Of a DNA stretch of 64,000 bases, positions 24,814 through 25,596 are shown piece after piece (within the stretch, counting starts at the first letter, position 1; every line of letters starts with the position of its first letter). The notes below the pieces were generated by a model. The model did no database searches. It had not been told where the DNA came from and saw only the letters and a program-made list of their open reading frames with translations. The DNA comes from Klebsiella phage LPKP23, in the sequence record PV112478.1. The stretch is one strand, 5' to 3'. The position numbers and the translations under genes were made by a program.

Positions 24814-25086
24814 TCAGTCATCGAAACGAATTGTTGAACCTTTGACAATCCCTTTACAAACTGTCCCTGTTACAAATTTACCGGCGGGTGATAACGCTTC
24901 GAAGTGAGTGCGATAAATTTCATTTTTGGCGCAGCCTAAAGTAAAGTCATCCGAAACTTTTACTTCAGTATAGCCATTATTTTCAAGTATTCGTTTAGCC
25001 CCGTCGGTATCACGTAAACCCATAAAAGACAATGCGCCCGCACCTAGTAATAGCACACAAACAATGGTATATAAAATATTTTTCAT
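24814..25086 (-). CDS. Small secreted/membrane-anchored protein (90 aa)
   Basis: Hydrophobic N-terminus MKNILYTIVCVLLLGAGALSF. Confidence 0.45.
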   Translation of the reverse strand: MKNILYTIVCVLLLGAGALSFMGLRDTDGAKRILENNGYTEVKVSDDFTLGCAKNEIYRTHFEALSPAGKFVTGTVCKGIVKGSTIRFDD

Positions 25087-25376
25087 TATTTTCTCTCAAG
25101 AAAAGGTTTAACTACAGAAAGTCTTTCTTCTTCTGTTAGTTCGTCTAAATCACGACTAGTCGACCCTCTGCGGAAGTTACGACTAAACTTCTCACCTGCT
25201 TTATCATCGTCCCCCAAACAAACAAATTCGTAAGGGAGTAATAATAGTTGTTGTTTCAGTTGAGGGGAAAGGTCAGAACCTAATGCGCTCCAGCTATTTA
25301 AGTCCAGGACATGAAGACTGGCTGATTTAAAGACAGACTCCGTTAAGAATACGGGACCGGGTTTCAGTTCTAATTT
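25086..25376 (-). other. Start-less ORF in the +1 frame relative to 25327..25596, open from 25376 to the TAA at 25086-25088 (TAATG overlap with the next gene)
   Basis: ~95 codons with no ATG/GTG start apart from a late TTG. Precisely abuts the start codon of the downstream gene, which suggests real coding sequence read by frameshift or disrupted by an indel. Confidence 0.3.
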
Positions 25377-25596
25377 CTAAACCAAAAACACCAACATTAC
25401 CAAGAAGTCTCGTGAAATAACGGGCTTCTTTAGGGTTCTTTGTTTTCTTAGGGGCATCGGGTGTATAAACCTGATAACCGCGCAGTTTATAGTCGAAACC
25501 AAACAAAGGTACGGTAAGACTGGTTTCTGTTAACCAATTAGTCGGGTAGCGGTTTACGTCGTAATGACGTTCGAGCAAGTGTTCGGTTAAGTTCAT
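25327..25596 (-). CDS. Hypothetical protein (89 aa); possible upstream part of a frameshifted gene
   Basis: ORF track. Ends at CUU UAA A. A +1-frame ORF continues to 25086 (see the next feature). Confidence 0.4.
   Translation of the reverse strand: MNLTEHLLERHYDVNRYPTNWLTETSLTVPLFGFDYKLRGYQVYTPDAPKKTKNPKEARYFTRLLGNVGVFGLEIRTETRSRILNGVCL

Follow-up and report, generated by a model that had tools for sequence, protein, structure and literature searches.

A clade-wide +1 frame break in a jumbo-phage primase gene points to probable ribosomal frameshifting at GAA AUU A

We analyzed a primase gene that is broken into two reading frames in a 64,000-nucleotide stretch of Klebsiella phage LPKP23 (sequence record PV112478.1), referred to below, at its full length, as the window. 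The window belongs to a jumbo phage of ~300 kb to which KpSz_1 and vB_kp_MJ359 are 95–97% identical and Centimanus and FBKp24 ~80% identical. The gene lies on the minus strand. Its first piece, open reading frame (ORF) A of the ORF listing, occupies 25596..25327, encodes 89 amino acids and ends ...AAC GGA GTC TGT CTT TAA; codons 1–74 (25596..25375) encode what appears to be the N-terminal subdomain of a DnaG-type primase catalytic core, and codons 75–89 are an out-of-frame tail that is unconserved and differs between lineages. The second piece is read in the +1 frame, here frame B. Its coding part comprises 95 codons and a TAA (25373..25086, stop at 25088..25086), beginning with a linker, LELKPGP, and continuing into a putative Toprim subdomain whose catalytic residues would be the Glu encoded by GAG at 25340..25338 and the DDD encoded at 25211..25203. 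Frame B is open over 96 codons in total, from 16 codons 5' of the ORF A stop, where frame analysis places a TAG (25379..25377) directly before AAA TTA, and it overlaps frame A by 47 nt. Within the overlap frame B encodes KPGPVFLTESVFK, the first strand and catalytic Glu of the Toprim fold, and the translation of the overlap in that frame, KLELKPGPVFLTESVFK, resembles the first Toprim strand with its catalytic Glu.

Frame B contains no ATG and no GTG, its earliest canonical start being a TTG at 25217, and its TAA overlaps the ATG of the next gene (TAATG). An earlier note on this DNA had described the absence of ATG and GTG, the TAATG overlap and the ending of ORF A in CTT TAA A with a GGAG 5 nt 5' of the CTT, and all three are as it described them, on the minus strand. 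The note had also stated that the +1 frame stays open for ~95 more codons past CTT TAA A; the frame is indeed open there, but 80 codons remain beyond that point and 96 is the total open length.

Several lines of evidence indicate that the two pieces encode one protein. ORF A matches PHROG 14043 and 849, labeled 'DNA primase' (E 1e-36), and frame B matches PHROG 17952 and 849, both labeled 'DNA primase'. The conceptual A+B fusion spans positions 147–331 of the 435-position PHROG 849 profile and is collinear from end to end, at 45–59% identity, with intact proteins of 164–172 amino acids from T5-like phages, Kagunavirus and metagenomes. The idea in the earlier note that the two ORFs are halves of one protein (~169 amino acids) in a +1 relation is borne out by this collinearity, and its proposed check, whether orthologues encode a single protein of ~165 amino acids, came out in favor: T5-like phages, Kagunavirus and metagenomic relatives have intact ORFs of ~170 codons. 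The Toprim Glu (E86) and D129-D130-D131, which contains the DxD motif, are invariant in alignments A1 and A3, and the match to Pfam Toprim_2 is below threshold (14.7 vs 22.1 bits). A PDB sequence search with the family profile gave no match at E<=1, and a search by fold was therefore needed. An AlphaFold2 model of the fusion has a mean predicted local distance difference test score (pLDDT) of 92.6 and a predicted template modeling score (pTM) of 0.88, with no dip in confidence at the junction; its best Foldseek matches in the PDB are E. coli DnaG (1eqn, 1dd9), M. tuberculosis DnaG (5w33) and the T7 gp4 primase (1nui, 6n9v), all at probability 1.00 with query-normalized scores (TMq) of 0.57–0.63 and with both halves covered. 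On the strength of this model and the profile matches, ORF A is the predicted N-terminal subdomain and frame B the predicted Toprim subdomain of one minimal primase core of the DnaG/T7-gp4 type, ~169 amino acids long. The fusion is a full-length homologue of the ~170-amino-acid 'DNA primase' of T5-like phages and Kagunavirus (the PHROG 849 core), except that those genes are uninterrupted, whereas classical DnaG and gp4 carry fused zinc-binding and helicase-binding or helicase domains that are absent from the phage fusion protein.

To place the break in a wider context, tblastn with the A+B fusion found the gene in 457 phage records; with contigs from IMG/VR, metagenomes and Logan added, the final set comprised 37 distinct split sequences and 54 distinct intact sequences. 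In the tblastn search every jumbo-phage match consists of two pieces with a +1 offset and every match in T5-like phages and Kagunavirus of one piece. The split gene occurs in the Klebsiella group, Erwinia Alexandravirus, Agricanvirus, Sasquatchvirus, Dickeya AD1 and JA11, and Salmonella SA002, and the +1 break is identical in 37/37 distinct sequences, all from jumbo phages of ~250–307 kb or contigs of jumbo size. The intact single ORF (164–172 amino acids) is the form of all T5-like and Kagunavirus genes and of several metagenomic relatives. In a neighbor-joining (NJ) tree over 170 residues a few intact metagenomic proteins fall among the split lineages; this placement is not robust, and gains and losses were left uncounted except for one case described below. 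Judged from this distribution, the frame break appears to be ancient and clade-wide, spanning at least six phage genera as well as metagenomes. An ancestor of this clade of enterobacterial jumbo phages would have gained one base between the conserved Glu codon GAA and the next hydrophobic codon. Among the intact genes, one T5-like sequence (L066, IMGVR_UViG_2974619995, 118 kb) has an in-frame TAA in place of GAA near locus position 1732, in the D-E-K linker; this TAA in an otherwise intact primase-like gene could reflect a nonsense mutation, faulty sequencing or read-through.

Both halves are under selection in their own frames. By the Nei-Gojobori method, the ratio of nonsynonymous to synonymous substitution (dN/dS) over the split sequences is 0.15 for part A in its own frame and 1.5 and 1.8 in the wrong frames, and 0.12 for part B in its own frame and 1.1 and 2.1 in the wrong frames, with synonymous sites near saturation (proportion of synonymous differences, pS, about 0.71). 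In the window lineage frame B runs for 52 codons before its first ATG, GTG or TTG, and these codons have a pN/pS of 0.15, compared with 2.5–4 in the other two frames. The comparison of sequences thus indicates that both halves are translated and under purifying selection. The constraint on the 52 start-less codons excludes a pseudogene and also requires an entry into frame B that does not use a canonical start codon. A sequencing or assembly indel, or a recent pseudogene, the alternatives offered in the earlier note, can claim scarcely any probability at all. Errors of this kind do occur, as a genuine low-coverage one-base error in one relative (L112) demonstrates, and one relative bears the RefSeq flag 'frameshifted, insertion at around 181351', with other annotations listing one or two truncated 'DNA primase' or 'hypothetical' coding sequences (CDSs). 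Yet the break is shared by 37 distinct sequences whose origins span many laboratories, sequencing platforms and metagenomes, at saturated synonymous sites and with a dN/dS of 0.12–0.15 in both halves.

Where the reading frame changes can be read from the phase of codon variation. On the 5' side of the hexamer GAAATT, variation falls on frame-A third positions, and frame A is confirmed through ...V(W/F)G(L/T/S)E, whose Glu codon is overlapped in the Klebsiella lineage by the frame-B TAG. The hexamer itself is invariant in 37/37 split sequences despite 14 different upstream 15-mers, and is followed by A in 36 and G in one; its synonymous third positions are also fixed, although synonymous changes on either side have reached saturation. 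In all 37 split sequences the Glu is written GAA, as against GAA in 34, GAG in 19 and GAT in one of the 54 intact genes. After GAAATT comes a linker of variable length, always 3n+1 nt (19, 25 or 28), in which frame-A third positions vary least and frame B shows a K-L-x-L-x-G-x-T pattern with synonymous exchanges (TTA/TTG, CTG/CTA/CTT, GGG/GGA). From +22 on, variation is confined to frame-B third positions. Frame-A coding up to the Glu and frame-B constraint after GAAATT together pin the shift to GAA AUU A at 25377..25371, where GAA (25377..25375) is Glu74 of frame A and TTA (25373..25371) is the earliest frame-B codon with coding constraint. Protein spacing agrees: intact relatives read WG(T/L)E-L-PV(K/R)TGV-VFLTE, with seven residues between the Glu and the strand, T5-like phages (E-TLNGDEK-VV) and Kagunavirus (E-YLPPGGT-VF) likewise have seven, and a +1 shift right after GAA reproduces this number.

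The constraint therefore switches frame 45 nt 5' of the ORF A stop, a position that bears directly on the mechanism the earlier note had proposed, an RF2-like programmed shift at CUU UAA A (25332..25326) in which tRNA-Leu slips from CUU to UUU at the stop codon with a GGAG 5 nt upstream. The window and its close relatives do have the heptamer with its GGAG, but CTTTAAA is confined to the Klebsiella lineage, where in frame B it is simply (G)TC TTT AAA, the V-F-K of a conserved ESVFK that other lineages write with TTC AAG. Nor is the frame-A stop conserved in position: in Erwinia and Dickeya phages it is AAC TGA, within the frame-B L-T-E codons, in the Klebsiella lineage CTT TAA, four codons after the Erwinia and Dickeya position, and in SA002 it comes 17 codons later. 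The 15 codons upstream of the Klebsiella stop are constrained in frame B and not in frame A, and changes within CGT ATT CTT AAC are synonymous in frame B (GTA/GTG/GTT/GTC, TTC/TTT, TTA/CTA, CCC/CCT) and nonsynonymous in frame A. A shift at CUU UAA A would moreover replace the conserved PVFLTESVF strand, which carries the catalytic Toprim Glu, with RSRILNGVCL. We consider a shift at this site exceedingly improbable; the frame changes ~45 nt upstream of it, at GAA ATT A.

A close relative supports the position of the junction. L113 (P0001, Logan SRR23675357, 313–816), which groups beside the window lineage in the NJ tree, encodes a single ORF of 167 amino acids that is 76% identical to the fusion. 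Its DNA reads GAA ATA GTC CTT CAA where split relatives have GAA ATT AGT ACT TCA, so that one T of the hexamer is absent, and its protein at the junction is E-I-V-L-Q-P-G-P-V-F, again with seven residues between the Glu and VF. We take L113 to be a natural revertant or an assembly error, the latter being less likely with short-read data. Its single chain supports the fused protein as the functional form and GAAATT as the junction.

A second kind of break was found in a distant branch, in two metagenome contigs of 40.6 kb and 176 kb (L096 and L106, positions 1627–1650 in each) whose copies of the gene show 13 differences. These are intact at the Glu-Leu junction and have another +1 break upstream, TAC CAT CCT ATT ATT CCC TAA GCA, where the +1 frame CCT AAG CAG CAC GAA AAT CCG restores the conserved P-K-x-H-E-N-P. 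By its sequence, ATT CCC TAA G is a textbook CCC_UAA_G shifty stop and an independent +1 break; this second +1 site points to recurrent recoding, tolerated or used, in the primase family.

The most reasonable explanation for these observations is that full-length primase is made by a conserved +1 ribosomal frameshift, programmed or corrective, at GAA AUU A, and we regard this as probable. The site conforms to what comparative analysis expects of such a frameshift and lacks the defining features of an RF2-type one, a stop codon and CUU. A fraction of ribosomes would shift +1 at 25377..25371 and make the full-length protein, and the remainder would stop 8–30 codons later, releasing the N-terminal subdomain with a junk tail. 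Two models can be considered. In model 1, tRNA-Glu would sit on GAA in the P site, A25374 would be skipped and UUA (Leu) decoded next; re-pairing from GAA to AAA keeps 2/3 pairs. In model 2, GAA and AUU would both be decoded and A25371 skipped, followed by GAA, GUA or AAC; re-pairing from AUU to UUA keeps 1/3 pairs. Model 1 would account for the restriction to A or G after the TT (Leu, UUR), which model 2 leaves unexplained, whereas model 2 reproduces the L113 protein exactly. We slightly prefer model 1. The products of the two models would differ only in Leu versus Ile, which are isobaric, within the tryptic junction peptide LLGNVGVFGLE[L/I]ELKPGPVFLTESVFK. We infer the ribosomal nature of the event from sequence comparison, as we do the skipped base, its efficiency and the choice between a regulatory and a corrective role; efficiency may be low, hence 'corrective', or may depend on factors that we have not seen.

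A possible stimulator lies just upstream. Exactly 3 nt separate GAA from a Shine-Dalgarno (SD)-like GGAG in the Agricanvirus-like, L099, L114 and L115 lineages, although the intervening codon varies (TTG, TAT, TTT), and GGGGA-NNN-GAA occurs in the Erwinia and Dickeya lineages, the GGGG being partly dictated by W-G codons. These elements, at the spacing found in prfB, could stimulate the shift.

A number of points weigh against a +1 ribosomal shift at this site. The SD-like element is weak or absent in the window lineage itself (TTTGGT-TTA-GAA). GAA AUU R does not figure among known +1 shift motifs, the junction has neither a 0-frame stop nor a consistently rare A-site codon, and P-site re-pairing would be imperfect under model 1 and poor under model 2. 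No conserved downstream RNA structure was found: RNAalifold on eight diverse junctions returned a 4-bp hairpin of -1.18 kcal/mol with no covariation, and Rfam at E<=0.1 over 24500..34000 gave no known element at the junction. Other ORFs of the window contain 17 in-frame copies of GAA ATT, nine of them GAAATTR, compared with 24.8 expected, so the heptamer by itself is neither unique nor clearly avoided. No phage tRNA common to the split lineages was found either. The trans-frame protein is a prediction from sequence, and the mechanism is deduced. Finally, frame B could conceivably be initiated separately in some lineages, as an ATG stands directly before AAA TTA in frame B of L099, L100 and L104, and in the Erwinia lineage frame B is open for 47 codons upstream with scattered start codons.

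This last point is the basis of an alternative in which the primase is split, with A and B made as separate polypeptides that assemble non-covalently and with B arising by non-canonical initiation or translational coupling near AAA UUA. Besides the ATG in those three sequences, L114 has one 7 codons upstream, the break coincides with the subdomain boundary of the predicted fold, several annotators list two 'DNA primase' CDSs, and jumbo phages of this kind split other enzymes into several genes. However, 12/37 split sequences have no frame-B ATG, GTG or TTG before VFLTE, including the entire window lineage, in which frame B opens only after the TAG. In all eight distinct Klebsiella-lineage sequences (8/8) there are zero open frame-B codons 5' of AAA, and because the TAG at 25379..25377 shuts frame B upstream, entry before Glu74 is impossible in that lineage. 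Where B starts do exist their positions are unconserved, toggling with synonymous changes in frame A, and no conserved alternative start for B was found among the 37 distinct split sequences. In L099 a single nucleotide separates the GGAG from the ATG, less than a normal SD requires, the frame-A stop falls 3' of the conserved start of B, so that termination-reinitiation would miss the TVFLTE strand, and the revertant L113 encodes a single chain. We judge a split primase unlikely, while granting it a real share of the probability. The 47-codon opening is shared, in the same register, by L006, L008, L009, L012, L015, L016 and their Erwinia and Dickeya relatives across several genera; it exceeds the expectation for an unused +1 frame (roughly 5–10% by chance), and the starts within it are unconserved.

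The frame could also be corrected in RNA, by a phage or host RNA polymerase or by editing that drops one base at GAAATT, so that some of the mRNA encodes the intact ORF. Transcription in these phages relies on multisubunit RNA polymerases of their own, short runs of A and T occur in the invariant hexamer, and it is in exactly GAAATT that L113 loses one T. Known transcriptional slippage, though, needs homopolymer runs of about 6–9 bases, e.g. GAAAAAA (PMC5009743). The junction offers AAA and TT only, well short of about six identical bases, and runs this short occur genome-wide, where slippage on them would corrupt most transcripts. We therefore hold correction at the RNA level to be improbable and return to a +1 ribosomal shift at GAA AUU A as the preferred explanation.

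Other candidate mechanisms and factors were considered and set aside. Translational bypassing is disfavored as the linker (19–28 nt) is constrained in frame B, no stop follows GAA and there is no matched frame-changing codon pair. Removal of a mini-intron over the 3n+1 linker is disfavored by the same coding constraint. In Erwinia phage Special G the split primase is followed directly by an RtcB-type 'tRNA splicing ligase' gene (gp50; L010:1723–2842); RtcB-linked RNA repair of the break was set aside because the linker shows coding constraint. The only other site in the window with a short 0-frame and a long +1-frame ORF, at 2169 on the plus strand, is antisense to a real 301-amino-acid gene.

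Phage-encoded tRNAs were examined as trans-acting factors. The window carries a cluster of nine tRNA genes at 28687..30169 on the minus strand (Ser-gct, Asn, Asp, Gly-tcc, Gln, Tyr, Arg-tct, Leu-taa and Met), and Rfam reports an additional tRNA-like match at 28953..29049 (97 nt, 38.9 bits) that ARAGORN does not call and that may be an unusually long or interrupted tRNA. Phage tRNA-Leu(UAA) is present in all Klebsiella-lineage genomes; it has no support as a universal factor, having gone undetected by blastn in Alexandravirus, Agricanvirus and Y3 phages that share the split. A suppressor tRNA was rejected: the ARAGORN call 'tRNA-Stop(tta)' is unsupported by Rfam, and a stop suppressor could not alter the frame in any case. 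The call itself is an 84-nt, ochre-suppressor-like 'tRNA-Stop' with anticodon tta at 33160..33243 on the minus strand (also 33075..33202, minus). Rfam finds no tRNA at this locus, but a sub-threshold match resembling the YrlA Y RNA (37.6 bits, gathering score 69) and a weak match to a tmRNA fragment; instead of a suppressor tRNA, the locus may hold a structured RNA, Y-RNA-like or of another kind, with a tRNA-like module.

Of the neighboring genes on the minus strand, the downstream ORF at 25086..24814 (90 amino acids) looks like a small protein of the signal-peptide or membrane type and is not part of the primase. Upstream, the ORF listing contains a 66-amino-acid ORF with a zinc-ribbon-like CxxC...CxxC pattern (25904..25704), and synteny with L113 is retained, the end of a homologous ORF lying 5' of the intact primase gene there; judging from its cysteine pattern, this ORF may encode a separate zinc-binding module for the primase core. 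A candidate 58-amino-acid ORF (MFAKNTLTIFIGMQ...) at 25714..25538, minus, runs in another frame into the beginning of ORF A; L113 conserves its N-terminal MFAKxTxxIFxGMQ, and the KpLz-2_45 annotation lists it as hypothetical.

Comparison with known recoding systems brings out what the primase junction shares with each and where it departs. In prfB, which encodes release factor 2 (RF2), a +1 shift occurs at CUU UGA C with an SD 3 nt upstream, re-pairing from CUU to UUU being the classic slip. The primase gene resembles it in the direction of the shift, in the fusion of a short upstream ORF to a long downstream one and, in most lineages, in the exact 3-nt spacing between an SD-like GGAG or GGGGA and the P-site codon; it differs in having no stop at the junction, a P-site codon of GAA (or AUU) rather than CUU, a weak SD-like element in the window lineage and none of the RF2-sensing logic. 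The yeast element Ty3 (GCG AGU U) has a similar XXX-N-YYY layout, without a stop, with imperfect or no P-site re-pairing and with a 0-frame codon that is passed over, but Ty3 is eukaryotic and depends on the rare AGU and a downstream stimulator, whereas AUU is common and no downstream element was found for the primase. Shifty stops of the CCC_UGA/CCC_UAA class are known from E. coli coding sequences and from the structural genes of Listeria phage PSA. That class fits L096 and L106, where CCC would re-pair on CCU and AAG then restore P-K, but its site is absent from the window. E. coli dnaX (tau/gamma) offers a parallel in function, being a replication protein gene whose recoding gives short and full-length products with a shared N-terminus; there, however, an SD and a hairpin accompany a -1 shift on A AAA AAG, which yields the shorter product, whereas the primase shift would be +1 and yield the longer.

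To our knowledge very few programmed +1 frameshifts exist in bacteria and phages, prfB being the sole well-established cellular case, and all of them use a stop or a rare codon. A different precedent is corrective 'savior-indel' frameshifting, as on the G-run of herpes simplex virus (HSV) thymidine kinase (PMC5009743). The primase resembles these cases in that a genomic indel would be offset by low-level frameshifting and the unshifted product is probably useless, but they are recent mutants on homopolymer runs, whereas the primase break is ancient, clade-wide and situated at a conserved hexamer that is not homopolymeric. We found no description of the primase junction in the open literature, and a review of frameshifting (PMC5009743) does not mention primase.

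More speculatively, the break could be a selected and regulated recoding device and not a tolerated scar, in which an undescribed bacterial +1 signal, SD-like-NNN-GAA-AUU-R, lacking both a stop and a hungry codon, sets the ratio of free N-terminal subdomain to full-length primase, and +1 frameshifting would then have evolved twice in this gene (GAA_AUU_R and CCC_UAA_G). We put this forward as a tentative possibility that we think may well not hold; were it true, such regulated recoding might be sensitive to the state of translation during infection. If a shift at GAA AUU A is confirmed, it would add a new +1 signal together with a natural comparison set of intact homologues, a revertant and an independent shifty stop in the same gene. 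Annotations of these phages should carry one recoded CDS where they now have truncated CDSs labeled 'DNA primase' or 'hypothetical', or else a 'frameshifted' flag. The finding is also relevant to primase production in jumbo phages, in which the replication machinery is poorly defined.

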